Of a stretch of DNA of 64,000 bases, positions 1-27,330 are shown one piece after another. Below the pieces are notes generated by a model, which was not told where the DNA came from, made no database searches, and saw only the letters and a list, made by a program, of their open reading frames with translations. The stretch spans positions 3,744,001 to 3,808,000 of the forward strand of contig OZ242005.1 of NCBI GenBank assembly GCA_965204725.1, given 5' to 3'. Position 1 is the first letter of the stretch, and every line of letters starts with the position of its first letter. The position numbers and the translations under genes were made by a program. Source of the DNA: Candidatus Latescibacterota bacterium. Lineage in GTDB: Bacteria > Latescibacterota > UBA2968 > UBA8231.

Positions 1-1068
1 ACTGGCGAAGTGCGGTATCGGGAGTGGATCGAGGAATACGTGGGGGCTTGGATAGAGCGAACCGAGGCCAACGGCGGCATCGTCCCGGACAACATCGGCC
101 CCAACGGCATCGTCGGCGAGATGCGCCAAGGGCAATGGTGGGGTGGGCTGTACGGCTGGACCGGGCGTTATGGACACGGCATGATGGCCCACGCGATCAC
201 CGCCGCGGCAGAGGCCGCGCTGCTGGTCACGGGCGAGACCCGCTACTTGGACCTGCTCCGCATGCATCTAAATACGCTGGTGGAGCACGGCGAGGAGGAA
301 GGGGGGCGGCTGCTCGTGCCCTACAAGCACACGGACGAAGGTTGGACCGACTTCAACCCCATTGATCCCAATGCGCCGATCCACTTGTGGGCTGCGTCTA
401 TGGAGGCGCGGGATTGGCAGCGGCTGGAGGCCTTGCGCCGCGGTGCCGAAGACGAGTGGAGGCAGGTGGGGCCGCGCGGGCCGCGCTCGCTCGACGACCG
501 CGCTTGGACCCGCTTTCTCGCGGGCGAGTTCCCGGATTATCCCGAGCGCATCTTGCAGGCCAACTACCGAGAGGTCTGTGACCGCATCGCCAAGGTGCTT
601 GCCGACGAGCAGGATCTCACCCAGCTCGACGTGCATTGGTGGCAGCAGGTCAACCCGGTGGTCACCGAAGCCTTGGTGCAGCTAACGACCGGCGCGCCGC
701 AGACCATCTACTGGGGCGGGTTGGCACAAGGGCGGGTGCGCTATTTCGACGGCGAGCAGCAACGGCCGGGTTTGCCCCCAGACGTAGCCGCGCTGGTGAC
801 CGGCCTCAGCAACGAAAGTGCGGAGTTGACGTTGGTCAACTTGAGCGCGCGCCGCATTCGGCGCGTGATCGTCGGTGCTGGCAGCTTTGGGGAGCACTGC
901 TTTGACCGGGTGCGAGCTGGCGACGAGGCCCTCGACGTGGACAGCACCTATTTCCAAGTCGAATTGGCACCGGCCAGCCAAATAGACTTGTCGCTCGCCA
1001 TGCGGCGGTACTGCCGGCCGCCCAGCTTTCGCCTGCCTTGGCACGGCGACGAGGTTCCCCAGCGGTAG
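1..1068 (+). CDS. Hypothetical protein, 5'-truncated by the window edge; Trp/Gly-rich, possibly an (alpha/alpha)-barrel carbohydrate-active enzyme
   Basis: Frame is open from base 1 (ACT GGC GAA GTG...) to TAG at 1068; no motif recognised with confidence. Confidence 0.6.
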   Translation, partial: TGEVRYREWIEEYVGAWIERTEANGGIVPDNIGPNGIVGEMRQGQWWGGLYGWTGRYGHGMMAHAITAAAEAALLVTGETRYLDLLRMHLNTLVEHGEEEGGRLLVPYKHTDEGWTDFNPIDPNAPIHLWAASMEARDWQRLEALRRGAEDEWRQVGPRGPRSLDDRAWTRFLAGEFPDYPERILQANYREVCDRIAKVLADEQDLTQLDVHWWQQVNPVVTEALVQLTTGAPQTIYWGGLAQGRVRYFDGEQQRPGLPPDVAALVTGLSNESAELTLVNLSARRIRRVIVGAGSFGEHCFDRVRAGDEALDVDSTYFQVELAPASQIDLSLAMRRYCRPPSFRLPWHGDEVPQR

Positions 1069-1093
1069 GGCAGCAATTTTGTATAGGCTCTTA

Positions 1094-1227
1094 GAAGCGT
1101 TCTTAAAATCAGGGTTTCCGTTTCTGATTCGGCTTGGTCCTTTTCTGGATTCCCGCTTTCGCGGGAATGACGGACCCCGTCTTTACGGCTCGTTCAACAC
1201 CCCCAAGGTGGGTTTTCAGACCGCTTC
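1094..1227. mobile_element. 134-bp MITE (type A) with IS5-like terminal inverted repeats and an internal dRS3-like palindrome
   Basis: GAAGCGTTCTTAAAA at the left end vs TTTTCAGACCGCTTC at the right end (13/15 inverted match); TA on both flanks; GGATTCCCGCTTTCGCGGGAATGAC inside; partial inverted copy at 8258-8335. Confidence 0.75.
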
Positions 1228-1258
1228 TAAGCATTCAACCTAAAATGGAGACTGGACT

Positions 1259-2002
1259 GTGGACCAAGCCGACCGAGATTTCTTTGCCGCAAATGGCTAT
1301 CTCAACCTAGGGCAGGTGCTCGCCGACGAGGTGCAATACTTCCGCGGCCTGTTCGATGGGGATATGGAAAAGCATCCCTATTTCTGGCACCGCTACGGCT
1401 ACCACCAACACGCCAACTACGAGGCGTTGATCACCTCGCCGCAGTTCGACGAGTTGATTCGCCACCCGAAGATATACCCAACGGTCGAGGCACTGATGGG
1501 CGGTCCGCTCTGCTTTGGCGAGATCGGGCTGCGGATGATGCGGGCCTACGACGGCCCGTTGCACCAAGGCTGGCACCGCGACCGGCCGCATTGGGACGAC
1601 CATCCGCTACGAATGGACTACATCCAACTCATGGTCTATCTGACCGATGTCAACGAAGGAACGCATTGTTTTTCGCTGTCACCGGAGTCGATAAGCCAGC
1701 CGGTGCTCGAAGACAAGGAAGCACAGCTCAAGCGAGGCGGCGAGTACCACTTGCACGGTCCGGCCGGGACTTGTGCGCTGTTTAACGTGGCTGCACTCCA
1801 CACGGCGACGACGCGGCCCACGCCGGCCGAGCGGCGGACGGTGCAGATTTACTATGGACATCGCAGCCGGGCGCCGCTGGCGAACGATTCGACTATTCCG
1901 GCGGCGTTTTGGCGGGATAGCCAAGATGCAGAGACGCGGGCTTTTTACGGAGTTTTGAACGAGCGCACCAAGGCGTATTTGGCGGCGTTTCCCGGAGCTT
2001 GA
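1259..2002 (+). CDS. Phytanoyl-CoA dioxygenase (PhyH) family Fe(II)/2OG dioxygenase
   Basis: F...GYL N-terminus, WHRD (HxD), distal LH, GGAG RBS. Confidence 0.85.
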   Translation: MDQADRDFFAANGYLNLGQVLADEVQYFRGLFDGDMEKHPYFWHRYGYHQHANYEALITSPQFDELIRHPKIYPTVEALMGGPLCFGEIGLRMMRAYDGPLHQGWHRDRPHWDDHPLRMDYIQLMVYLTDVNEGTHCFSLSPESISQPVLEDKEAQLKRGGEYHLHGPAGTCALFNVAALHTATTRPTPAERRTVQIYYGHRSRAPLANDSTIPAAFWRDSQDAETRAFYGVLNERTKAYLAAFPGA

Positions 2003-16154: not shown

Positions 16155-17135
16155 CTATCCCCAGAGTTGCGGATGGGGCGGATGGAGGAGGCTGCCTTCG
16201 TAGCGCAGCCCGTGTTGCCGATCTTTTTGCAGGAGCAGGGGACCGTCGAGATCGACGAAACGGGCGCGTTGCGCCAGCAGGACCGCCGGTGCCATGGCCA
16301 GCGAGGTGGCGACCATGCAGCCGACCATCAGGTCCAATCCACACGCGCCCGCCTCGGCTGCCAAGCGCAGGGCCTCGCTGAAGCCGCCGGTCTTGTCCAG
16401 CTTGAGGTTGACGCATTCGTAGCGGGAGGCCAGCTCAGGGAGATCGGCGGTGGTGTGGCAGGATTCGTCGGCGCAGAAGGGGACCGGGTGTTCAAACTCG
16501 GCGAGCAGGGCGTCTTGGTCGGCGGGTAAAGGCTGTTCGATGAGCGCGACGCCCAAGCGAGCCAGTGCGACCGCGAGCGGCTCGACTTGGTCGGCGGACC
16601 AACCTTCGTTGGCATCGACGATCAGGGTCGAGTTTGGGGCGTTGGCGCGGATCGCGGCGACGCGGTCGAGATCGTCGCGACCGGCGAGTTTGACCTTGAG
16701 CAGCGGGCGGTTGGCGTGCAGGGCCGCGGCCCGACCCATGGCCGCTGGGTCGTCGAGCGAGAGGGTGTAGGCTGTCGCCACCGGGCGCGGTGCTACTAGG
16801 CCGGCTAGCTGGTAAGCCGGGCGGCCGCTGAGCTTGGCTTCTAGATCCCACAGGGCGCAGTCCAAGGCATTGCGGGCCGCACCGGGCGGCAGGGCGCGGT
16901 GCAATGCCGCTCGGTCGAGGTCGGCTTCCACCTGTGGGCGCAACGATTCTAACGCTTCTATGGTCCCGACCACGCTTTCGCGGTAGCGGGGATAAGGGAC
17001 GCATTCGCCGCGGCCAACGCAGCCATCGCGGCTCAATTCAACGACGACGACCTCGGCGGTAGTTTTGACGCCGCGCGAGATGGTGAAGGGCTGGGCGAGG
17101 GGAAAGTGCTCGCTGCGCACGGAGAATCGGGTCAC
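16155..17135 (-). CDS. dgcA: N-acetyl-D-Glu racemase / L-Ala-D/L-Glu epimerase (enolase superfamily)
   Basis: FTISRG, KVKL, DANEGW, EQPL, ADES, KLDKTGG, DLDGP. Confidence 0.85.
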   Translation of the reverse strand: MTRFSVRSEHFPLAQPFTISRGVKTTAEVVVVELSRDGCVGRGECVPYPRYRESVVGTIEALESLRPQVEADLDRAALHRALPPGAARNALDCALWDLEAKLSGRPAYQLAGLVAPRPVATAYTLSLDDPAAMGRAAALHANRPLLKVKLAGRDDLDRVAAIRANAPNSTLIVDANEGWSADQVEPLAVALARLGVALIEQPLPADQDALLAEFEHPVPFCADESCHTTADLPELASRYECVNLKLDKTGGFSEALRLAAEAGACGLDLMVGCMVATSLAMAPAVLLAQRARFVDLDGPLLLQKDRQHGLRYEGSLLHPPHPQLWG

Positions 17136-18130
17136 AGGGCATCAACCAAGCGCGCGGCCCCTTGGCGCAGCGGATCAACGGCGGGCAGGCCGGCTTGCTG
17201 TTCTATGGTCCTGAGCAGGTCTAAGGCGTGGTTTTCCGGCAAGTGCGAGGTGTTGACTGCAATGCCAACGGTGCGGCAGGCCGGGTTGGTGAGCCGGCCG
17301 CATTGCTCGTTGAGGCGAATGCAGTCGAGCAGATCGGGGAGCCGGTATTCGGGCAGGCCGCGCATGTGGGGGCGGTTGGGATCGTGGCAGAGGACGAGCG
17401 CGTCGGGCTGGGCACCGTGCATGAGGCCCAGCGACACGCCGGCATAGGAGGCGTGGAACAGCGAGCCTTGGCCTTCAATTAGGTCCCAGTGCTCGGGGTG
17501 GTTGGCCGGGGTCAGGAGCTCGACAGCCCCAGCGAGGAAGTCGGAAACTACAGCGTCCACAGCAACGCCCGTCCCGGCGATGAAGATGCCGGTTTGGCCG
17601 GTGGCGCGAAAGGTACAGGCCATGGCTCGCGCTTGCATCTCGCGCTCAATGGCCAGCGCGGTAAACATCTTGCCGACCGAGCAGTCCGTGCCAACGGTGA
17701 GCAGGCGTTTGCCCGGGCGTTTGACGCCGGTTGCAATGGGGAAATCGCGGTCGGAAAAGCGCGCATCCACGAGGCGAGTGCCCTTTGCGCGAGCGCGGTC
17801 GGCCAAGCCGGGGATGGTGCCAAGGCGGGTGTGTAGGCCACTGGCGAGGTCGTAGCCGAGGTCAATGGCCTGCAAGAGGGTCTCGCGCCAGAGGTCGGAG
17901 ACCATGCCGCCGCGATTGACGACGCCGATGATGAGGGTGCGGGCACCGGCGGCTCGGGCTTGGGCGAGGGTTTGGTCCGGTAGGCCGAGGTCGGCGCGGC
18001 AGCCCGGAAGGCGAAGCTGACCAAGGCATTGTTCGGGACGCCAATGGGCGATGCCAACGGCCGTTTTGGCGGCTAGCTGGTCGGCAGCATCGCCGAGGAA
18101 CAACAGGTATGGGGGCGCGAGTTGGAACAT
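17132..18130 (-). CDS. dgcN: DUF1611 family protein / D-glutamate N-acetyltransferase
   Basis: PYLLFLGD, AAKTA, VGTDCSVGKMFT, ATGQTG, EGQGSLFH; overlaps dgcA. Confidence 0.85.
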   Translation of the reverse strand: MFQLAPPYLLFLGDAADQLAAKTAVGIAHWRPEQCLGQLRLPGCRADLGLPDQTLAQARAAGARTLIIGVVNRGGMVSDLWRETLLQAIDLGYDLASGLHTRLGTIPGLADRARAKGTRLVDARFSDRDFPIATGVKRPGKRLLTVGTDCSVGKMFTALAIEREMQARAMACTFRATGQTGIFIAGTGVAVDAVVSDFLAGAVELLTPANHPEHWDLIEGQGSLFHASYAGVSLGLMHGAQPDALVLCHDPNRPHMRGLPEYRLPDLLDCIRLNEQCGRLTNPACRTVGIAVNTSHLPENHALDLLRTIEQQAGLPAVDPLRQGAARLVDAL

Positions 18131-18296
18131 GGAGATAAGATAGGAATTGCGGCAAAACGCGGATAGCGCGGGGTTTCCGCAGAGTGTACCTTATTGACAA
18201 GAGCAAGGTGGATTTTCCCCGTGCCCGAGCGCATGGGGTATTCGCCTGATGCGGTTTTTCCGCACTCCATAAAATGATAACTCTTAGAAATAGACC

Positions 18297-21200
18297 ATGC
18301 TAAGCTCATCAACTGATCCCCTTGAAATACTCGCGGACGCGCTTGAGGAGAAGCGGCCGCTGGTGTTGTTCGCAGGCCAGAGTCTCGACTCGGCCCATGA
18401 TGCCATACTTGGTGCCCTCCTCGATCGCTTTGGATGCACAGATCGCAATTCGGGATGGTGCGTAGCCCTCAAGCAGGGCATAAGTGTGGACGATATGGCG
18501 TGGCTTTCTGAACGGTTTGAACGAAGTGTTCCCTCTGCCGCCGCCGCCGCTATCTTCGATGTCGCATGGAGTGCGGTGTTCACTTCATCTATAGATCCCC
18601 GGTTTGCGAGGCGTTTCGAGACCAGAGGGCGGCAGCCCGAATCCGTGCTTTCCAAAGACACCTACTCGAAGGTGCCGCGTAGCCGCTCAAGGCCGCCGAT
18701 CCACTATCTCTTTGGAAAATCCAATGAAACCGTTGAGTATGCGCGAGCACCCGGAAACCAAATTGATCTGACGCGCCGCCTTAGCCTACACGCGACGGAA
18801 TTGCTGAACCGCATTGCGGAAACCGCGACAGTGCATGGCTTGGTGGTCATAGCGGGCTACGACCCAAGCAAAGATTGGATGCAACTGGACTCGTTATTGG
18901 CCCCGCTATCTGTCCCCGTCGGCCCCAAGGTTCTATTGTTGGGCTGTCCCGGCAAACTGGACTCGATCTTCGCTGACGAAATGATCCAGCGCGGTTCGCT
19001 CACTGTGACCGAAACGACCCTTGCAAGCGCGATAAGCCAACTCGAACTCCGCGGTGTGCTCGACATTGCGGGATCCGCTGCCCCAGATAATCCGGGCATG
19101 GTGTCGCTTTCCGAGGAAACGGCACTGGACATCACGCCTGCCCTGCGGCTCCGAGTGGAAGCGTCGGCAGCTATTGTCGATGACGGATGGACGGAAGAGA
19201 TCGAACCCTTAGGCGACTTAGAACGATACGACGCATTCCGCCGCTTTCACAGTACGCTCGGTAACTTCAGATTGCTGGTGGAGGGAATATCGCGTGGATT
19301 TGCAGTAGAACGCGAGTTCGAGCAAACCCTTTGGAGGACAGTGAACGACGAGTTCGAGCGATTCGGGCAAGCTGATTCCGACAATGTGGTTATTCTGCAT
19401 GGGCAGTCGGGCACTGGAAAGAGCATCGCACTCGCACGGCTGGCTTGGAAGATTCGTCGCAAACTGCACCTGCCCGTTGTGGTCGCGACGAATCGGATAC
19501 CGAATCCCACAGACATCGAAGCATTCTGCTTGGAGGCCGAACGCTTGGGAGCGAAAGCGACGGTCTTGGTCTGCGACGCCAGCCAACCCCCACAACGCTA
19601 CGACGATTTGGCCTCTGCGCTGCGAAGTATGGGGCGCCGATTGCTCATCGTGGGCACTTGTTATCGGATGGAGGATCAAAATGGCGGCGCGTTGAATCGA
19701 CATGTCGAGTCCCCCGCCAGCGTTTCACAGGGCGAATTATCCGCGTTTGAGGAACTGTTGAACAAATTCGACCATCCCTCAACAAGCTACTACACTCAAC
19801 TCACCACTGACTCGATCTTTGCCATGCTATACCGCAGTTTGCCTTCCTCACGCGAACGCCTCACCACAGGCGTGTCATCGGAAGCGAGGGCTACCGAAAG
19901 TGTGGTACGGGATCGGGCAAGGTATGCGCCGCGGTCATCTACTGGGCTATCTCTCTTAGCGGAGCAGTTGATTAAGTCGGGCATTGCTAGTCCAACTTCG
20001 CCGTTGTTTGAGGAGGATGAAAAGCTCGCGGCTTTGGGCTTGGACGAAGCAGGACGATTGGTTGACTATGTGATGGTAGCTGGTCGGCTGGACTGTGCAG
20101 TGCCCGTTAATCTTATTTTTCGTCTGCTCGGTCAGGCAGGTGGTCTGCATCTGGATCAAATCACCTATCTCCTCGCCGACCTCGATCTGTTCCGTTGGAT
20201 AGATGACCAAGAAGGAGCGGATTTTCTGATTTCGCCACGCATACAGCTCGAGGCAGAGCTTATATGTAGGCGAAGGCTTACTCCCGAGCAGGAAATCGAC
20301 CGCCTGCTCGATCTAATCGGCAGCGTCAGATTTGGATTGGATCAAAGTGCCGAGCGTTCGTTCTTGCTCAACTTGCTGTTCATGATTCGGAATGGACCGC
20401 GCAAAGAGGCGTACCGCTCTGGTTACCTTCGGTTTGCCGACGCGCTCAAGCAGTTGCGGGAGCAGAATAGAATATCCGATCCAGACCTCGTCTTGCCCGA
20501 GTGCGTGTTCCGACGAAGAGCGGTCTCCCGGTCACAAAGCGATTACGATGCAGATAGAACTGACGACGAGCGATTGGCTATTCTGGATGAGGCTCGCGAT
20601 ACAGTCGAAAAGACGCTCCGCCAGATTGACGACGGGAAGATTTTAGTGTCCAGAAAAACAAAACAAAGCCTAATTGCAGAACGCTCGGCGATATACGGAT
20701 ACCTTGCAATTGAGCGTGCTCGATCCAGTGGCAGCGAGGACTTTTGGTCGGACTATCTCGCTGCAAGGACAGCAAGCGAGAAAGCTATTGGGCTTGGCAG
20801 AAATACCCATCCCATTGACATCGCCCTTTGGACAGCGAGCGATGTGCTCAAACTAAAAAAGGACGAAATGTCCGATGCACAACATGCGGAAGTTTTAGCC
20901 GACCTGCACGCAACCATTGATGTTGCCGATGAAGTCTTCAGGGTGAAGGGACAAAAGACAGGGATGTCGAGCGATTTACCAGAATACAGTGACCCGGACG
21001 AGGGGTTAGCCGCTTTAGATCAAAAAACGAAGTATCTCTATCGTCGAAGCCGTGTTGCAGACGTTATGGGCGACGCGAAACTGAGCGATGAGACACTTGC
21101 CGAGTTGGAAAATATCGCGCCCGCGGCAGCAACCTTCCTCATCGCAAAGCGGCAGGCGGAGCAGGTGTATATGGGCGAGCCGCCTTTCGACTACAAGATT

Positions 21201-21791
21201 CGCGGAATCGCAGCAAAAGCGGCGGACTACATATCCCGCCGCGTCAATAAAGGAATTGTGCTGGATGACCGCTGCCAACGGCTCTTGCTCAGGTTGCGGT
21301 GGGCACAGGCAACGGGCGAGCGTCTGATGTTCAATCAGCGTAGCCGTACGCCCGTGGACACGGACCTGATTTTTGAGTTGCGTAAAATCGTAAATGTTCT
21401 CAACGAACAAGCCGGGGCCGACGCCCGCAACCGGGAGCGGTTTCTCGAAGCAGTGTTATGCTGGCTGCTCAAGGATACGAACCGCGCCATCGAGATATGG
21501 CGGGCGCTGTCGCGTGATACAGAATACGAAGATCGAGCACGAGTAGTTCGGTGGCTCGTAGCGACGGACGAGAACGGTTCCCCGCGTCAATTTCGCGGGC
21601 GCGTCGAAGCGGGAAGGGAGAACAACTGGCAAGTGCGAGTAGAGGGTGTTGAAAGGCCCATCTCATTGCTAGCGCGCGATTTCCCAAACGCTGAGCTCGC
21701 CCATGGTCGAGAACTGAGAGAGTTTGGCATCGCCTTCAACTATATTGGCCCCATTGCCGATCCGCTCTCCCACCCGAGGCGCGGACGATGA
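18297..21791 (+). CDS. Large multidomain protein: degenerate SIR2-like domain, P-loop (STAND-like) NTPase, helical repeats, C-terminal OB-fold; putative defence sensor
   Basis: LVLFAGQ, WSAVFTSSID, IHYLFG, VIAGY; Walker A GQSGTGKS (aa 369-376); Walker B VLVCD; C-terminal FRGRV...FGIAFNYIGPIA. Confidence 0.65.
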   Translation: MLSSSTDPLEILADALEEKRPLVLFAGQSLDSAHDAILGALLDRFGCTDRNSGWCVALKQGISVDDMAWLSERFERSVPSAAAAAIFDVAWSAVFTSSIDPRFARRFETRGRQPESVLSKDTYSKVPRSRSRPPIHYLFGKSNETVEYARAPGNQIDLTRRLSLHATELLNRIAETATVHGLVVIAGYDPSKDWMQLDSLLAPLSVPVGPKVLLLGCPGKLDSIFADEMIQRGSLTVTETTLASAISQLELRGVLDIAGSAAPDNPGMVSLSEETALDITPALRLRVEASAAIVDDGWTEEIEPLGDLERYDAFRRFHSTLGNFRLLVEGISRGFAVEREFEQTLWRTVNDEFERFGQADSDNVVILHGQSGTGKSIALARLAWKIRRKLHLPVVVATNRIPNPTDIEAFCLEAERLGAKATVLVCDASQPPQRYDDLASALRSMGRRLLIVGTCYRMEDQNGGALNRHVESPASVSQGELSAFEELLNKFDHPSTSYYTQLTTDSIFAMLYRSLPSSRERLTTGVSSEARATESVVRDRARYAPRSSTGLSLLAEQLIKSGIASPTSPLFEEDEKLAALGLDEAGRLVDYVMVAGRLDCAVPVNLIFRLLGQAGGLHLDQITYLLADLDLFRWIDDQEGADFLISPRIQLEAELICRRRLTPEQEIDRLLDLIGSVRFGLDQSAERSFLLNLLFMIRNGPRKEAYRSGYLRFADALKQLREQNRISDPDLVLPECVFRRRAVSRSQSDYDADRTDDERLAILDEARDTVEKTLRQIDDGKILVSRKTKQSLIAERSAIYGYLAIERARSSGSEDFWSDYLAARTASEKAIGLGRNTHPIDIALWTASDVLKLKKDEMSDAQHAEVLADLHATIDVADEVFRVKGQKTGMSSDLPEYSDPDEGLAALDQKTKYLYRRSRVADVMGDAKLSDETLAELENIAPAAATFLIAKRQAEQVYMGEPPFDYKIRGIAAKAADYISRRVNKGIVLDDRCQRLLLRLRWAQATGERLMFNQRSRTPVDTDLIFELRKIVNVLNEQAGADARNRERFLEAVLCWLLKDTNRAIEIWRALSRDTEYEDRARVVRWLVATDENGSPRQFRGRVEAGRENNWQVRVEGVERPISLLARDFPNAELAHGRELREFGIAFNYIGPIADPLSHPRRGR

Positions 21792-22687
21792 CGCCGATCG
21801 ATCTCAGCAACCTGTATCAAACACTTCGCACTCGTGTCTCTATCCACTGCCCGAACAGTTGTGCCGAAATCTCCCTGCGGTTGCCATCCAACTTCGGCGA
21901 TGAGTTGGCGTTCTATCGGCTGGTCAATTGGGGCTATGTTCTCGTCCAAGAGTCAGCAAAAATTCCGCTTGCCTTTCTCACCAACCTGCCGCCCCTGAAG
22001 GCGGACAATTCGTTCCGAAAGGAAGTTTCTCGCCTGCGAACCTATGTGGCCCACAATCTCGATACAAAAAGCACGAGAGATCAGAAAACGTATGCCTTCG
22101 TTCATCGTTGGTTCAAGGAGGCGTGTGGGCGCGGAACTCCAGACAGCGTCGCCCATTACGGGGATTGCTGTGCTTACCTTGCTAGCAGGCTTCAAGAAGT
22201 GCTCAATGGCGCGATTGAAGCATGCGACCTGCTCGACGCCCCAGAGGATGGGCCAAGGCTCGTTGCCGATCTCAAGGGCCGCATTGACCTCGTTTGGGAG
22301 GCGCATCGCTTCGATCCAATAGTTGCAAAGTGTGCCGCTCGGTTGGGCAATCCGGGGCTCGATCTGCTGGCGATCCGATCAAGGCACCTTGAGAAGTGGC
22401 GCGATGTGTTGGCCCAAGCCGACGAGAACGAACGCGAGCGCGTCCTCGAACAGCGAATTGAATCCGATCTACTGCAAGCCATCGGCGACGCCCTGCCGCT
22501 AATCATACGTGAAAACTTGCAACGGGTTGCGGCGAACATCCATGCGACCGTCGCCGCATTGCTCTTGTTGCGCGAGGCCCGACGCATTGGTGCTATGACA
22601 CTGCCGCAGATTATTGAGTTTGTAAGCCGGCAAGTCTTGGGGCGGGATAATTCCCAAGGCGACGCGGAGCTTGTTGATGCTCGCTGA
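21788..22687 (+). CDS. Hypothetical helical protein with HEPN-like RxxxxH motif
   Basis: LRTYVAHNLD (R84/H89); ATGA overlap with the upstream gene. Confidence 0.5.
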   Translation: MTPIDLSNLYQTLRTRVSIHCPNSCAEISLRLPSNFGDELAFYRLVNWGYVLVQESAKIPLAFLTNLPPLKADNSFRKEVSRLRTYVAHNLDTKSTRDQKTYAFVHRWFKEACGRGTPDSVAHYGDCCAYLASRLQEVLNGAIEACDLLDAPEDGPRLVADLKGRIDLVWEAHRFDPIVAKCAARLGNPGLDLLAIRSRHLEKWRDVLAQADENERERVLEQRIESDLLQAIGDALPLIIRENLQRVAANIHATVAALLLLREARRIGAMTLPQIIEFVSRQVLGRDNSQGDAELVDAR

Positions 22688-22944
22688 TCCTCCCACGGCG
22701 AGACAGGGCCAAGTAGAGCTTTAATCAATTCTCAGATAATTTAGTTTCAACTTGTCAGTTAAAAAGATCTTTGTCTTAATTAAAGTACACTTTTTCGCAC
22801 TTTTAGATGTACATACAAGTATGTGCTTTTCTCGGGATTCGCCGAACTAGCGTATTATTAGTGAGTTATACGTTAGCAGGTTCCACGCGCTCGCAGGTTC
22901 ATGGAGAAATCCTACAATTATGAGCCAACTAAACCGTCGGCTAG

Positions 22945-22974
22945 AGTACTTAATTTAGTACCATATAAGGTACA
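22945..22974. promoter_or_regulatory. Probable Phd/YefM autorepression operator
   Basis: Three GTAC cores at 22946, 22958 and 22970 (12-bp period) just upstream of the antitoxin RBS. Confidence 0.6.
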
Positions 22975-22985
22975 AAAGAGGAAAT

Positions 22986-23243
22986 ATGATCCAATCCATG
23001 CCCATTGCCGAAGCTCGCAAAGTCCTGAATCAACTACCCGATCGCTTCGTCGCCGAACCCGAAGCAAGTGCTCTCGCCGTAACGCGCCGCGGTCAGCCGG
23101 TACTCGCGCTGATGCCGTGGTCGCTTTATCAGGGCATTGTCGAAACCTTAGAGGTACTCGGGGACGAGGCCCAGTGTGCTGCGTTGCGCGAAGGCATCCG
23201 CCAGATTGAGGCGGGCGAGCGCACCGTTTGGGAGGTGCAGTAA
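22986..23243 (+). CDS. Phd/YefM family antitoxin
   Basis: PIAEARK.LNQL, VTRRGQPVLALM, ETLEVL. Confidence 0.85.
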   Translation: MIQSMPIAEARKVLNQLPDRFVAEPEASALAVTRRGQPVLALMPWSLYQGIVETLEVLGDEAQCAALREGIRQIEAGERTVWEVQ

Positions 23244-23274
23244 GCCACCGCCCGCTGAAGGGAGGAGTTGTGCT

Positions 23275-23592
23275 ATGAGATTCCGCGTCGTCTTGGCGCA
23301 GTGCGCCTTAGAGTCGCTGCAAGGTCTGCTCAACCGGCGGATTGCCGAGCAGGTTGACCAATACATCACAGGGCTAGCCAGCGATCCCGAGGAACAGGGC
23401 TGGCCCTTGGTCGGCGAGTTAAAGGGCTATCGCTGCCTGCGTCCGCCGGGAGGCTGGTTCCGCATTGTCTATCGGATAGGGCTGGGTGAGGTCGAGGTGG
23501 TACTGGTGTCGGTAGGGCAGAGCCATTCGGCAGGCGAGCGAGACGTGCGCACCTTGGCGCGGACGCTATTTAGCGAGCGGTTGCTGCGCTAA
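23275..23592 (+). CDS. RelE/ParE family toxin
   Basis: L..DP..QG.PL.GELKGYR.LR...FRIVYRI; GGAGGAG RBS. Confidence 0.8.
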   Translation: MRFRVVLAQCALESLQGLLNRRIAEQVDQYITGLASDPEEQGWPLVGELKGYRCLRPPGGWFRIVYRIGLGEVEVVLVSVGQSHSAGERDVRTLARTLFSERLLR

Positions 23593-25625: not shown

Positions 25626-25925
25626 CATCTTGCCCTCGACCCCAGATTCATCGGGAACAACCACCTGTCTGCGGCGGAACGGGCGATTGCGGAGGATGTC
25701 TGGCAGCAATACGGCCATTTGCCCCCATGGGGTTCCAATAGCATCGTCGAGCATACTCATCGCCTCCCCGAGTAGGAAAATCCCGCAGAAAATCCGCACG
25801 GTCCCCAAGCGACGCCCATCCCTATCCAACGCATCCTGCTCGCCTTGAAGAAGAGCGACGAAGAAATCCAAGCCCTCTTGGAGTTGGAACAGACCGACGC
25901 TTGGCTGGATAGGGTCTTGGCGTGA
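25626..25925 (+). pseudogene. C-terminal remnant of a Panacea (DUF4065/SocA-like) antitoxin
   Basis: Frame not in the ORF track: LSAAERAIAEDVWQQYGHLPPW...HTHRLPE*ENP, with TAG at 25773-25775 where Trp is expected. Confidence 0.6.
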
Positions 25926-26104
25926 TCCGAGCCGGTGCCGTCGTCCAGTCGAACGTCGCTCCTTACCACCACTTCATCGTTCTGACCAGTCCCAACGCGG
26001 CCGACGAAGTCCTCCCTCTGAATGCCGCCGTGCTCCAACGCCTTCAAGCCGCAGCCAAAGCGTCGGGCCGTTTGCCGCCCGCTTGGATAGACGATCTGCC
26101 ATAG
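25922..26104 (+). pseudogene. Short, probably internally deleted toxin partner
   Basis: GTGA overlap with the Panacea remnant; 60 aa with HHFIVLT and LQRLQ motifs reminiscent of the ends of PemK/MazF-like folds. Confidence 0.35.
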
Positions 26105-26214
26105 ACGGTGTTGGTTCGCGGACCTAAGTGCGCGAGACCTATTTGAGTACGCTTTTCTGGTATTTCAACCGACGGCATTGAAATCAGCATGAACAACCCC
26201 ATGGAGATTCCACC

Positions 26215-27330
26215 ATGATACCGCATAGACTGGCTATCGTCGTGTGGTCCGTCTTGGTCCTGCTGGCGGGTCGTGCGGTAGCGGTAGATGGGAAGGCAGA
26301 GACGCTGCCGAGGAGTGCGGCGCAAGCCATCGACCATACCGACGACACGCGCCCGTATTGGACGGGTCGGATCGAACAGGACACGACGTGGCGCGATACG
26401 GTGTATGTCGGCGGCGATGTGACGATTGCGGCAGCCGCGACGCTGACGCTGGCTCCCAATACGCAGGTTCACTTTCTACCTTATCACGATGCGACCCAAG
26501 GCGGCTTGGACTCGACCCGTGCGGAACTGATCGTCGAAGGGCGGCTGGCGGCGCAAGCCGGTGGCATCGTCTTTCGTTCAGCGGATGCGGGTTCGTTGGG
26601 GGCCGATTGGTATGGCCTTGTCGTCGAGCGGGGTGGGCAAGCCGACGTATCCCACGCTGCGATACGAGACGGCTTGCGCTGTGTGTATGCCAAGCGGGGT
26701 GGGCGCGTCACAATGGACGCTATCGCCTTTGCCAACTGTGGGAAGCCGACCGCGCCAGAAGACGCCGCTGGTCTTTCGATAAGTCAGAGGCGTACCCAAC
26801 CGCTGCCCGCTCTCCGCCAAGAGCTACCACCTCTTTCGATGAAAGCGAGTAGAGGGGACGACAGAGGGATTGACAAACGTATTGCCAAAAAGTTGAAGGC
26901 CGGTGCTTTAGGAGGATTCGTGGGGTTCTTAGGTGGGACTGTCTTGGGTTTTGCCGCCTTGGGTGTCGGTGGTGGTGGCGACGGTATTGGTGGCCGTGAA
27001 GTTTTCTATTTCGTCGGGTCTGTCGGCTCTGCGGTCGGATCCGCGGTCAGCGTGAGTCAAGTTGATCCGCATGATCTCTTCGCAGCCTCACTGATGGGCA
27101 GTATACTAGGATTTGGAGCAGGTTTGGGGCTGGCCTACATATCTGGAAATCCTAATGCCTTTCTTGTCTCCCCCGTTTTCTCAGTTGCCTCGGCAGTATG
27201 GCTGTCAGAAGACTCTCGCAATCGTTCGGCTGAACCCACACTGAAGCCTCCTGAAACCGGCCGTTTCTCGCTCGGACTAGGCACGAATCCCCGGAGGCAT
27301 TTATTAGCTATCGCCAAGTTACGATTCTGA
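26215..27330 (+). CDS. Secreted/membrane protein, array member 1 (beta-helix-like N-domain plus Gly-rich hydrophobic C-domain)
   Basis: Signal peptide; GRIEQDTTW..TVYV.GDVTI...TLTL.P; ends LRF. Confidence 0.7.
   Translation: MIPHRLAIVVWSVLVLLAGRAVAVDGKAETLPRSAAQAIDHTDDTRPYWTGRIEQDTTWRDTVYVGGDVTIAAAATLTLAPNTQVHFLPYHDATQGGLDSTRAELIVEGRLAAQAGGIVFRSADAGSLGADWYGLVVERGGQADVSHAAIRDGLRCVYAKRGGRVTMDAIAFANCGKPTAPEDAAGLSISQRRTQPLPALRQELPPLSMKASRGDDRGIDKRIAKKLKAGALGGFVGFLGGTVLGFAALGVGGGGDGIGGREVFYFVGSVGSAVGSAVSVSQVDPHDLFAASLMGSILGFGAGLGLAYISGNPNAFLVSPVFSVASAVWLSEDSRNRSAEPTLKPPETGRFSLGLGTNPRRHLLAIAKLRF

Follow-up and report, generated by a model that had tools for sequence, protein, structure and literature searches.

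What do two overlapping genes, inserted between conserved flanks in a genome of Candidatus Latescibacterota, encode, and do they act against viruses? A sequence-only reading of the locus had proposed a new two-gene defence system, in which a degenerate SIR2/STAND sensor triggers a HEPN-like partner in trans. We followed up this proposal by comparative genomics, profile searches and structure prediction.

A two-gene insert between conserved flanks

Within the window, the whole 64,000-nucleotide stretch of DNA that we analysed, the insert extends over positions 18133-22778 (about 4.65 kb) and contains the two genes only. In genus mates that lack the pair, the match to the window breaks off at 18132 and picks up again at 22779-22783; the insert is a clean indel at a single site and is carried by 6 of the 31 genomes of the genus. 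GC content falls from about 0.66 at 14-18 kb to 0.51-0.57 at 18-23 kb, and the spacer at 22700-22900 is AT-rich, as had been noted. The insert is made up of:

18133..18296, + strand: left insert end with the operon's 5' leader (conserved flank up to 18132)
18297..21791, + strand: gene 1, encoding a 1164-aa SAMD9/Avs5-like STAND NTPase of the Pfam nSTAND_NTPase5 clade
21788..22687, + strand: gene 2, encoding a 299-aa all-helical partner of an unannotated family, a putative HEPN-like RNase effector
22688..22778, + strand: AT-rich 3' end of the insert, followed by conserved flank from 22779-22783 on

Both reading frames are as first reported, and so is the ATGA at 21788-21791 (+ strand) in which the stop codon of gene 1 overlaps the start codon of gene 2. 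We read this overlap directly from the sequence, and an ORF script called an identical 4-nt overlap at no fewer than 15 of 22 genome loci. A simple scan of the + strand of 18133..18296 found no sigma-70-like promoter.

A toxin-antitoxin pair lies downstream, at 22986-23243 and about 23272-23592, with matches to Phd/YefM (E 2.9e-10) and a ParE-like family (E 0.0027, below the Pfam cut-off). The sequence-only reading had counted this module into the accessory block and thus partly misread the genomic setting, because genus mates that lack the insert have the pair too, as part of the conserved flank. The flanks in the window are metabolic genes, with no defence island around the insert. Among 97 flanking ORFs at 18 other loci, housekeeping families are in the majority, and defence neighbours (restriction-modification, MADS, TIR or Mokosh-like) are found at some other loci only.

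The two genes are always inherited together

We found that the partner gene is always co-inherited with the gene for the large protein. The two are adjacent in all 42 informative loci, which come from many phyla; the pairing seen in the window is conserved. The STAND gene lies directly upstream of the partner in 22 of 22 genome loci and likewise in 20 of 22 metagenome loci, the remaining two having no upstream DNA; the clade of the metagenome loci is only about 27% / 20-25% identical. In the phylum, both genes occur in the same 12 of 168 genomes, adjacent in each, and in G553 both have decayed together. Identity to the window's two proteins drops in parallel across loci (r = 0.98, n = 20). Close copies (72-82% identical) occur in records labelled with different phyla. 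In the phylum of the Methylomicrobium-titled MAG, 400 other genomes were sampled and all lack the pair.

The large protein is predicted to be built like the core of SAMD9

A structural model of the large protein (pLDDT 78.9 overall) shows a SIR2-like domain, a STAND NTPase, helical repeats and a C-terminal beta-barrel, in that order:

18303..19070, + strand: SIR2-like Rossmann domain, aa 3-258, placed by VIA-align; predicted docking surface for the partner
19071..19286, + strand: linker, aa 259-330, from the secondary structure of the model, located where SAMD9 has its delta domain
19287..20405, + strand: STAND NOD module, aa 331-703; contains Walker A (GQSGTGKS, 19401-19424) and Walker B (Asp427)
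20406..21521, + strand: helical-repeat (TPR-like) region, aa 704-1075, the presumed sensor
21549..21776, + strand: C-terminal beta-barrel, OB/cold-shock-like, aa 1085-1160, from the model

In Foldseek searches with the whole model, the best solved match was human SAMD9 (E 4.8e-18 to 1.8e-16), followed by EfAvs5 (E 1.5e-13) and the AVAST5 filament (E 2.7e-11). [quoted passage not shown] Foldseek TM-scores against SAMD9 are low (0.17-0.26) because the domain arrangement differs. Sequence similarity to SAMD9 was not detectable with a 33-homologue profile, which returned P-loop matches only (E>0.03) from PDB sequences.

The individual domains called from the sequence are borne out. The NTPase matches Pfam PF25199 (nSTAND_NTPase5) over aa 331-455 (E 9.9e-9; 35.6 bits, cut-off 34), with nSTAND3 at E 0.087, and model 294..703 aligns with CED-4 (VIA-align Z 13.5). 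Walker A is intact (GQSGTGKS 369-376, including K375): across 33 sequences, G369, Q370, S371, G372, G374 and K375 do not vary, and conservation of D427 is at least 90%. DSSP assigns helices from 703 to 1075, a region that the SAMD9 alignment covers, and one distant homologue gives weak TPR_2/TPR_16 matches (E 0.006-0.012). The barrel has five strands within 1099-1155. A language-model comparison of residues 1080-1164 led to clusters carrying PF22707 (S1CSD-TOTE-2; score 0.78), a lead only; Pfam PF22707 and PF22708 themselves have no match at E<=1 in the large protein. No PADLOC model matches either protein, and Pfam finds no DNA-binding output domain in the pair. As modelled, the large protein is an ATP-dependent switch built like the SAMD9 core.

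The SIR2-like head lacks the sirtuin NADase residues

VIA-align places the head among defence sirtuins, with ThsA (8btp) at Z 15.8 (rmsd 3.5 A, 226 residues aligned, model 8..256) and KomC and DSR2 at Z about 14.5 over about 3-258. Pfam SIR2_2 gives no match at E<=1 in the large protein, nor any match in three further homologues and eight distant ones. Canonical SIR2_2 genes are numerous in the same phylum, occurring in 23 of 61 genomes sampled. The motifs quoted from the sequence are all in place (VLFAG 22-27, W..VFTSSID 91-100, IHYLFG 135-140, VIAGY 184-188), and two of them bear on catalysis:

18579..18596, + strand: FTSSID, aa 95-100, where sirtuins have TTNxD
18708..18716, + strand: LFG, aa 138-140, where sirtuins have HG

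The replacements read as S98 and F139 extend through all 46 family members examined. Position 98 is Ser in 32 of 33 close homologues and Thr in one; its equivalent in the distant clade is Ala in 12 of 13 and Ser in one. Position 139 is Leu in 22 and Phe in 11 of the close homologues, next to a G140 present in 33/33, and its distant equivalent is Phe (10/13) or Tyr (3/13). Asn at the TTN position was found in 0/33 close and 0/13 distant members, and His at the HG position in 0/46. The equivalence of S98 and F139 to the catalytic Asn and His is drawn from the order of the motifs, the positions of the strands and a weak local profile alignment, in which hhalign pairs WSAVFTSSIDP with W..VFTTNYD (E 0.025, probability 1.9%), and not from residue-level superposition. 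The glycine-rich GAGxS motif is degraded to [FL][AL]GQx, with Ser at position 29 in only 17/33, and a basic loop, RSRSRPP (128-134), is invariant. Judged by these alignments, the head is without the residues needed by sirtuin NADases in both clades of the family. Since it is strongly conserved despite this loss, it presumably has another job. The SIR2-like domain of SAMD9 is described as having no NAD-binding lid, as not binding NAD and as serving for activating contacts (PMC13600222).

The partner carries an invariant Rx4H motif and is predicted to bind the head

The partner has no family match in Pfam, NCBIfam or PADLOC. Its model (pLDDT 85.6) has 13 helices, and a profile search at E<=1e-3 gathered 435 representatives of its helical family, which is unannotated; of the 150 listed, most have no further domain and are about 280-320 aa long. 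We confirmed the motif proposed as its active site:

22037..22054, + strand: R84-T-Y-V-A-H89, a putative catalytic Rx4H, from invariant columns and position in the model

In an alignment of 50 diverse partners, each 19-40% identical to the query, no column other than R84 and H89 is invariant, and both residues are kept in three fused relatives. R84 ends helix 75-88 in the model and H89 opens the loop to helix 96-113, matching the HEPN arrangement of an Rx4H motif at a helix end and the start of the next loop (PMC3710099). The HEPN description is also matched by a conserved acidic residue, E55, in the long helix that precedes, and by a short helix inserted ahead of the motif helix. The residue after the HEPN Arg is usually Asn, Asp or His (PMC3710099); here it is Thr.

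The earlier description of the partner as HEPN-like stands for the motif and its place in the model, and it rests on these two because no structural or profile search recovered a HEPN fold. Foldseek against the PDB gave no match at E<=1e-3, the best VIA-align hits were to lyase helices (Z 6.0-6.1), and BFVD gave no match. No HEPN-clan Pfam family matched any of the 50 members at E<=0.05, and hhalign against 17 DUF4145 HEPN domains stayed below 1% probability. A C-terminal Pfam tRNA_NucTran2_2 match, to a domain like the tail of CCA-adding enzymes, is present in 24 of the 50 (best E 7.2e-7); the window partner's subfamily has lost the G.D / PGP signature of this tail domain and has no PF13735 match. 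Three relatives are fused C-terminally to TIR_2 (P0283, P0367) or PNP_UDP_1 (P0337). TIR and PNP are defence effector domains, and such fusions could make the shared partner domain an adaptor instead of an effector. On the strength of the motif and the model, the partner probably cuts RNA.

Complex prediction puts the partner on the SIR2-like head, with scores, the model's own confidence obtained with alignments made for this analysis, of 0.70, 0.74 and 0.74 against 0.00 for the best of three controls. Of 80 solved complexes, 58 attain this mark, as do 2 of 110 mismatched pairs. At least 64% of contacts agree between runs, and the partner pLDDT is at least 75. The predicted interface takes in residues 32-40, 73-85, 102-111 and 241-251 of the head, including the family-invariant R73, R76 and V78, and residues 264-303 of the linker; R84 and H89 lie outside the predicted contacts. 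The partner is thus predicted to bind the head and the adjoining linker.

A split STAND module with a putative RNase effector

The pair is a new two-gene variant of Avs/SAMD9-like STAND systems, and most likely an unstudied anti-virus system. It is named neither in the papers searched nor in PADLOC, and the claim that it is not a named system holds to that extent; the SAMD9-core architecture had gone unrecognised, however, and the system is therefore not wholly new. We favour, at a probability of about one half, a split SAMD9/Avs5-like immune module in which the partner is a HEPN-type RNase effector that acts through R84 and H89 in abortive infection. Computation supports the ATP-dependent switch encoded by gene 1, a head conserved for something other than NAD hydrolysis, and the docking of the gene 2 product on it. 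From there, the repeat/OB region would sense a phage product, and the NOD would open and oligomerise, gathering or releasing bound partners. The partner would then act as a metal-independent RNase, to stop translation and abort the infection; a C-terminal domain akin to the CCA-adding enzyme tail may direct it to tRNA. Abortive-infection immunity via a trans-acting RNase is probably the role of the pair.

The partner might instead be a non-nuclease adaptor, co-sensor or regulator that docks on the head, the toxic output coming from fused TIR or PNP domains in some relatives, a recruited host factor or the STAND protein. The missing HEPN match, the adaptor-plus-effector layout of the three fusions and the large, confident interface that an adaptor needs all suit this idea. 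We nevertheless consider it unlikely: the window protein and most of the 150 listed representatives have no further domain to deliver, and in a pure adaptor one would expect conservation of the interface rather than of a solvent-exposed Arg/His pair that is alone invariant, persists in the fused forms and lies away from the contacts.

Still less probable is that the head remains the effector, using a non-canonical active site as an NADase or ADP-ribosyl-type enzyme, with the partner only modulating it. The head does have the fold of defence sirtuins (Z 14-16) and is highly conserved, invariant basic loop included, and in Avs5, Asn-Gly can stand in for the canonical His-Gly (PMC12931631). Yet the TTNxD Asn is essential in Avs5, where N110A abolishes immunity (PMC12931631), and it is replaced in 46/46 family members; the degraded GAGxS motif and the absent lid described for SAMD9 point the same way. 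We give equally little credence to a non-immune signal-transduction or RNA-metabolism module, although some bacterial STAND proteins are regulators. The metabolic and toxin-antitoxin surroundings in this genus, the housekeeping neighbours elsewhere and the silence of PADLOC would fit such a role. Against it stand the patchy distribution in genus and phylum, the clean, lower-GC indel, the close pairs under different phylum labels, the joint decay in G553, the antiviral nature of the closest solved structures, the TIR and PNP fusions, the defence neighbours at some loci and the lack of a DNA-binding output domain.

Comparison with known systems

Several known systems share parts with the pair favoured here as a split immune module. 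Like HEPN RNases, including the anticodon nucleases PrrC and RloC, the partner has an all-helical domain with an invariant Rx4H at a helix end and loop start; in both, the Arg is followed by a polar residue, and a conserved Glu lies upstream (PMC3710099). Table 1 of that paper lists HEPN domains fused to 'STAND-ATPase, TPR, S1', the same parts as in the pair but in one chain. The partner, in contrast, is a separate gene product with no HEPN HMM, profile or solved-structure match, and has about 140 more helical residues and an end resembling the CCA-enzyme tail. TOTE conflict systems (TPR, OB, TBP, Effector; 10.1101/2025.09.15.676423) likewise join a TPR-plus-S1/CSD module with a separate effector gene; in our pair a SIR2-like STAND protein ends in the TPR-OB part, and there is no TBP gene, because the insert holds just two genes.

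Avs5 (AVAST type 5, SIR2-STAND; PDB 9jap, 9nc9), the second-best solved match (Z 13.9, model 2..935), also runs from an N-terminal SIR2-fold domain through a STAND NTPase to a helical sensor. It is, however, a single gene whose SIR2 domain is an NADase effector with an essential TTNxD Asn (PMC12931631), whereas our large protein has an nSTAND5 rather than an nSTAND3 NTPase, no SIR2_2 or PADLOC match, an additional barrel at the C-terminus and a partner gene that is obligatory. Avs9 and Avs6, compared by description only, are bacterial STAND proteins with a SAMD9-like core, as here (PMC12680541). Their effector (AlbA_2 or PNP) is fused N-terminally in one polypeptide, and the output of Avs9 is described as its nuclease domain, not its SIR2 domain (PMC12680541); our large protein begins with the SIR2-like domain, and the putative effector is the next gene.

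The closest relative by structure is the human antiviral STAND protein SAMD9/SAMD9L (PDB 9zjr, 9zjs), which shares the order of SIR2-like Rossmann domain, linker, NOD, helical repeats and OB barrel; its published domain order includes the delta domain and a C-terminal OB domain (PMC13600222). The SIR2-like domain is not expected to act as an NADase in either, and both have an RNA-directed nuclease as output (PMC13600222, PMC12680541), putatively so in our pair. Unlike SAMD9, the large protein has no SAM domain and no AlbA_2 tRNase domain, and the putative nuclease is found in a second protein, whose family is a different one and all-helical. Read in this way, the pair would be a split counterpart of SAMD9 and Avs9, whose nuclease is fused before the SIR2-like domain.

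The pair is a two-gene insert at a variable site

The sequence-only reading had described two open reading frames joined by an ATGA overlap. We found both frames, with every quoted motif present in their translations, and read the 4 shared bases ATGA at 21788-21791. The features of the region, in window coordinates, are as follows.

17132-18130, minus strand: DUF1611-family gene
18297-21791, plus strand: gene of P0001, the large protein or sensor (1164-aa ORF)
21788-22687, plus strand: gene of P0002, the partner (299-aa ORF)
22986-23243, plus strand: Phd/YefM antitoxin (Pfam E 2.9e-10)
~23272-23592, plus strand: ParE-like toxin (Pfam E 0.0027, under the cut-off)

To map the insert, we searched the 31 genomes of the genus with 11 kb of sequence surrounding the pair. 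The flanks are present in all 31 and the pair in six, the window's own genome included, at the same site every time. In pair-less genomes the left flank stops at window 18132, immediately upstream of the DUF1611-family gene, with the right flank picking up at 22779-22783, so the accessory unit is window 18133-22778 and consists of two genes only. GC content falls from ~0.66 in the 4 kb before the pair to 0.51-0.57 over 18-23 kb, and the window's genome (5.43 Mb, two contigs) holds a single copy of each gene. The genes upstream of the insert are metabolic (an amidohydrolase, a C39-like peptidase, an MR/MLE enzyme and DUF1611), and a simple scan for a promoter and a terminator gave nothing above shuffled expectation.

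The downstream type II toxin-antitoxin pair, which had been assigned to the accessory block, turned out to be conserved flank: genus mates without the insert keep it, and we rejected it as part of the system. A 102-aa ORF near it (22901-23209) is probably in the wrong frame. Where the pair is missing, three genomes examined hold a different 300-400-aa ORF on the minus strand and two have ~440-460 bp only; the interval between the DUF1611-family gene and the toxin-antitoxin pair is a variable spot, as seen at the five loci L057, L058, L061, L059 and L060. Two further stretches (window ~25659-26014 and 26195-26500) are 80-92% identical to many other places, both in the window's genome and in genus mates, which suggests a repeated element downstream of a Cache-domain gene.

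The two genes are conserved as a pair

The coupling proposed from the sequence recurs widely. A search with the partner through 185,579 species genomes gave 22 loci, and at all 22 a homologue of the sensor lies directly upstream on the same strand. These genomes are titled Latescibacterota, Gemmatimonadota, Acidobacteriota, Binatia, Gamma- and Alphaproteobacteria, and Spirochaetia. Metagenomes yielded another 22 loci from a distant partner clade (two look identical), 20 of which have a sensor-like gene directly upstream; at the remaining two, the contig starts inside the partner gene. The genes are thus adjacent at all 42 informative loci, an arrangement different from the single-gene Avs5 type. 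Across 168 genomes of the phylum, the profiles of both proteins match the same 12, and the genes are adjacent in each of them. From locus to locus, sensor and partner also drop in step in their identity to the window's proteins (r = 0.98, n = 20 intact loci). The motif LRxxxxHN is found at 44/44 loci, a count that is circular and not evidence, since the loci were found through that motif.

All eight distant sensors scanned, and that of L022 (a locus in a Methylomicrobium-titled MAG, G061), match Pfam nSTAND_NTPase5 and none matches SIR2_2, so this Pfam clade appears to mark the two-gene family. In a sample of 400 other genomes from the phylum of that MAG, neither search found the partner family. 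One genus mate (G553:C13:3122753-3126666) has both genes in decay, the sensor spread over three open frames and the partner cut to ~160 matched residues. We conclude that the pair is real, conserved and mobile, and we regard it as almost certainly a functional unit.

At L018 (4544-8879) and L020 (4712-8567) the sensor gene looks frameshifted, with tblastn matches split over frames, and the partner match at L020 is interrupted too. A Spirochaetia-titled MAG (G064, locus L016) contains two partner-family copies, at C1:3261206-3262087 and C1:2873003-2873881.

The large protein is modelled with a SAMD9-like architecture

Sequence libraries detect the NTPase alone in P0001. Residues 331-455 match Pfam nSTAND_NTPase5 (E 9.9e-9, 35.6 bits, cut-off 34), SIR2 families are absent from the Pfam results at E<=1, and NCBIfam yields P-loop matches alone (E 0.08-0.12, far under cut-offs). 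The protein matches no PADLOC Avs model and no SIR2_2, and nSTAND3 appears at E 0.087 only. The list below gives what an AlphaFold2 model built with 33 homologues (mean pLDDT 78.9) resembles.

Table. Structural relatives of the P0001 model; Foldseek TM-scores for this model are low, 0.17-0.28.
Structure; Foldseek; VIA-align
Human SAMD9; E 4.8e-18 to 1.8e-16; Z 17.1, 737 residues, model 3..1160 = chain 389..1589
EfAvs5; E 1.5e-13; Z 13.9, model 2..935
AVAST5 filament; E 2.7e-11; Z 12.7, model 4..874
DSR2; E 1.6e-5 to 3.6e-4; Z ~14.5, model ~3-258
ThsA; E 7.6e-5 (8wc0); Z 15.8 (8btp), rmsd 3.5 A, 226 residues, model 8..256
KomC; not listed; Z ~15
CED-4; E 3.6e-4; Z 13.5, model 294-703

Model residues ~3-258 align to the SIR2 domains of ThsA, KomC, DSR2 and SPARSA (Z 12.2-15.8, rmsd 3.5-4.5 A, 219-237 residues), which places a SIR2-fold domain N-terminal to the NTPase, as in SAMD9-like STAND proteins. 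The STAND NOD carries Walker A and B motifs, in which K375 is invariant and D427 shows at least 90% conservation. These matches bear out the SIR2-like and STAND assignments made from sequence, and the long helical region that was also claimed is seen in the model as helices 703-1075 (~370 residues). Five strands (1099-1155, read within the whole-protein model) follow; for this putative C-terminal barrel the ESM Atlas provides a lead with a score of only 0.78. On the SAMD9 side the alignment begins where the SIR2-like domain does and reaches the C-terminal OB domain, and this range together with the terminal strands points to the order SIR2-like domain, linker, NOD, helical repeats and OB-like barrel. 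The same order is given for the SAMD9 core in PMC5445408 and PMC13600222; P0001 would be that core without the N-terminal nuclease. A search of PDB sequences with the 33-homologue profile yielded P-loop matches only, with SAMD9 and Avs5 chains absent at E<=1. As modelled, the likeness to SAMD9 and Avs5 is one of architecture and domain folds, with sequence likeness undetectable.

One metagenome sensor (L067, 435-4634) has an ORF open for 1399 aa, with an N-terminus ~270 aa longer than the others. Pfam finds nothing in the extra part, which could be a fused domain or merely an open upstream frame.

The SIR2-like head has probably lost the catalytic residues

We compared the sirtuin motifs across the family and found that a catalytic-position Asn or His occurs in 0 of 46 members, as the sequence-only reading had proposed for the window's sensor; the equivalence of these positions to the sirtuin Asn and His is drawn from motif order, a weak local hhalign match and a strong fold match.

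Table. Sirtuin motifs in the sensor family.
Motif; 33 homologues (51-85% identical); 13 distant-clade proteins (~27% identical)
GAGxS; [FLVY][AT]GQx; L[GQ]-type
TTNxD; TS[ST][IL][DN], Ser 32, Thr 1; [ST][ST][AS][IV]D, Ala 12, Ser 1
HG; [LF]G, Leu 22, Phe 11, Gly 33/33; L[FY]G, Phe 10, Tyr 3

The window's protein reads FAGQx and TSSID in place of the competent GAGxS and TTNxD found in Avs5, where the Asn of TTNxD is described as essential (PMC12931631). Its motifs follow the sirtuin order, each at the end of a strand in the model (22-26, 93-96 and 135-137). In hhalign, WSAVFTSSIDP lines up with W..VFTTNYD from a set of 13 canonical SIR2_2 domains belonging to the same phylum, a weak match of 33 columns (E 0.025, probability 1.9%); that a comparison with canonical SIR2_2 gave so little means that this profile-profile set-up is insensitive and that its negatives carry little weight. 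The head is among the most conserved parts of P0001 (invariant W54, W69, R73, F74, R76, V78, W91 and an RSRSRPP loop), and such strong conservation points to a retained, non-NADase role. A SAMD9-like architecture with an inactive SIR2-like domain is very probable.

The window's genome also encodes two canonical SIR2_2 (PF13289) genes outside the window, at G000:C1:1913039-1913476 and G000:C1:4613027-4613440. One lies within a 1262-aa open frame and may be a single-gene system of the usual Avs5-like or DSR-like type.

The partner family conserves an Arg-His pair

P0002 receives no family name from Pfam, NCBIfam or PADLOC-DB 2.0.0, matches unnamed hypothetical clusters only in the ESM Atlas, and has homologues in a large protein collection whose only name is "hypothetical protein". 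Of 1.84 billion cluster representatives searched by profile, 435 match at E<=1e-3 and, among these, 322 at E<=1e-10. In a 50-member alignment (19-40% identical to P0002, mean column identity 18%) R84 and H89 are the sole invariant columns, which upholds the conservation expected of them; they sit within L-R-T-x3-H-N-L and conform to the conserved Rx4-6H of the HEPN superfamily. Conservation is at least 90% at T85 and at E55.

In the partner model (pLDDT 85.6, 13 helices), R84 lies at the end of helix 75-88, H89 opens the loop 89-95, and helix 96-113 comes next; E55 sits at the far end of the long helix 39-56, with a short helix (58-65) inserted ahead of the motif helix. This setting agrees with the HEPN description in PMC3710099, which gives Asn, Asp or His as the usual residue after the Arg and E-x3-[KR] as the Glu motif; the partner differs in having Thr after the Arg and E-x2-[KR].

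Foldseek of the partner model against the PDB returned nothing at E<=1e-3, the top rows being unrelated helical proteins with no HEPN chain among them, and the BFVD viral library likewise gave nothing at E<=1e-3. VIA-align of the whole model, in a wide search and a second look, reached a best Z of 6.0-6.1 with no HEPN entry among the matches listed; the best ones, helices of adenylosuccinate lyase or fumarase and sigma-70 region 2, were rejected because such Z values are under the chance level for helical models. HEPN-clan Pfam families match neither P0002 (E<=1) nor any of the 50 members (E<=0.05), and hhalign of the N-terminal part against 17 DUF4145 HEPN domains gave a probability <1%. As HEPN folds and families were absent from the results of all these searches, the earlier label "HEPN-like" is an inference from the invariant Rx4H and its modelled placement.

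A possible link to tRNA comes from the C-terminus, where 24 of the 50 members match Pfam tRNA_NucTran2_2 (best E 7.2e-7), by its Pfam name a domain of tRNA nucleotidyltransferases. This domain binds tRNA. The window's own partner subfamily has diverged from the signature. Three members carry C-terminal fusions, to TIR_2 (P0283 and P0367) or PNP_UDP_1 (P0337). A search for fused forms >1093 aa with the partner profile found none, which is weak evidence. We give even odds to the partner being an RNase effector. Two other relatives, P0373 and P0388, have a ~300-aa N-terminal extension with weak AAA_lid_14 matches.

The partner is predicted to contact the SIR2-like head

Co-folding of the partner with sensor residues 1-700 gave complex scores of 0.70, 0.74 and 0.74, whereas the best of three controls scored 0.00. 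When the tool was calibrated, 58 of 80 solved complexes attained the score mark, as did 2 of 110 mismatched pairs; these counts hold only roughly here because the alignments were user-made. The runs share at least 64% of contacts, with partner pLDDT at least 75. On the sensor side, the predicted interface comprises the SIR2-like head (32-40, 73-85, 102-111, 241-251) and the linker (264-303). The partner contributes 63-82, 95-110, 148-168 and 207-226, helices that flank the R84-H89 loop, with R84 and H89 themselves outside. Sensor residues R73, R76 and V78 and partner residues L64, L67, D154 and L158 belong to this predicted interface. The modelling supports binding of the partner to the SIR2-like head.

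Proposed mechanism and role in defence

In the boldest reading, the pair would be a split, ancient bacterial counterpart of SAMD9, in which a dead sirtuin domain would be repurposed as a docking and control platform for a trans-acting, unrecognised HEPN-like nuclease targeting tRNA, switched on as STAND oligomerisation gathers the partners; we put this reading at roughly 40%. In the mechanism proposed here, the repeat/OB region would sense a phage component and the NOD would oligomerise, partners held on the SIR2-like heads would be brought together or released, and they would then cut RNA, perhaps tRNA, aborting the infection. The scheme parallels SAMD9, as described in PMC13600222: its SIR2-like domain is unlikely to bind NAD and makes activating SIR2/SIR2 and OB/SIR2 contacts, and oligomerisation is proposed to bring its tRNase domains together.

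An antiviral role is likely on several indirect grounds: the patchy distribution, clean indel and apparent horizontal transfer of the pair; the antiviral nature of the closest structures, with TIR and PNP fusions in relatives; and genes of defence type next to some of the loci. Near L012 there is a Type III methyltransferase, and near L075 a TIR protein; among 97 flanking ORFs, MADS-type models match two and Mokosh-type models two. Flanking genes are mostly housekeeping.

The human genes SAMD9 and SAMD9L act against viruses and are linked to disease, and what their SIR2-like domain does is only just becoming understood. How a SIR2-like domain governs a nuclease, and where the fused eukaryotic and Avs9 architectures came from, could be studied more easily in a small bacterial version, whose dead SIR2-like head is predicted to bind an effector encoded by another gene. 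If the split-SAMD9 reading is true, the use of a SIR2-like domain as an effector platform, known from human SAMD9, predates nuclease fusion, and a new RNase family of >400 sequence clusters is added. The unannotated partner family, with 435 clusters at 50% identity and an invariant Arg/His pair, is a candidate new RNase in its own right, and the Pfam nSTAND_NTPase5 clade would gain a candidate function.

Comparison with known systems

PADLOC-DB 2.0.0 contains no system model for either protein: P0001 matches only PbeC (E 0.0061, over a 40-residue P-loop stretch) and P0002 nothing. A full-text literature search found the pair, PF25199 and PF13735 not named in a defence context, though supplementary tables from the Aravind lab may list the clade. 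In the main text of a 2026 survey of 589 STAND clades (10.64898/2026.01.04.697583), the terms SIR2, in trans, operon and separate gene do not occur, and HEPN comes up three times, always in connection with a different protein; the clade may be in its supplementary tables.

TOTE systems are described as a TPR-OB protein with TBP and an effector (10.1101/2025.09.15.676423), whereas the insert holds two genes only and its partner is all-helical. P0001 also has no Pfam match to PF22707 or PF22708 at E<=1. A listing from 2013 includes fusions of HEPN domains to STAND-TPR-S1 proteins (PMC3710099), and Avs5, Avs6 and Avs9, the latter two SAMD9-like, are described with fused effectors (PMC12680541). 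Avs5 is a single gene, and competent GAGxS/TTNxD motifs with the essential Asn belong to it and not to P0001. SAMD9 and Avs9 proper have an N-terminal AlbA_2 nuclease domain in the same chain; here it is absent (no Pfam match in P0001 at E<=1), and the SIR2-like domain begins at ~residue 3-8. The pair is a two-gene variant of Avs/SAMD9-like STAND systems, added to a mostly single-gene Avs repertoire, which combines a dead sirtuin head with a trans-encoded, probably RNA-cutting partner from an unannotated family.
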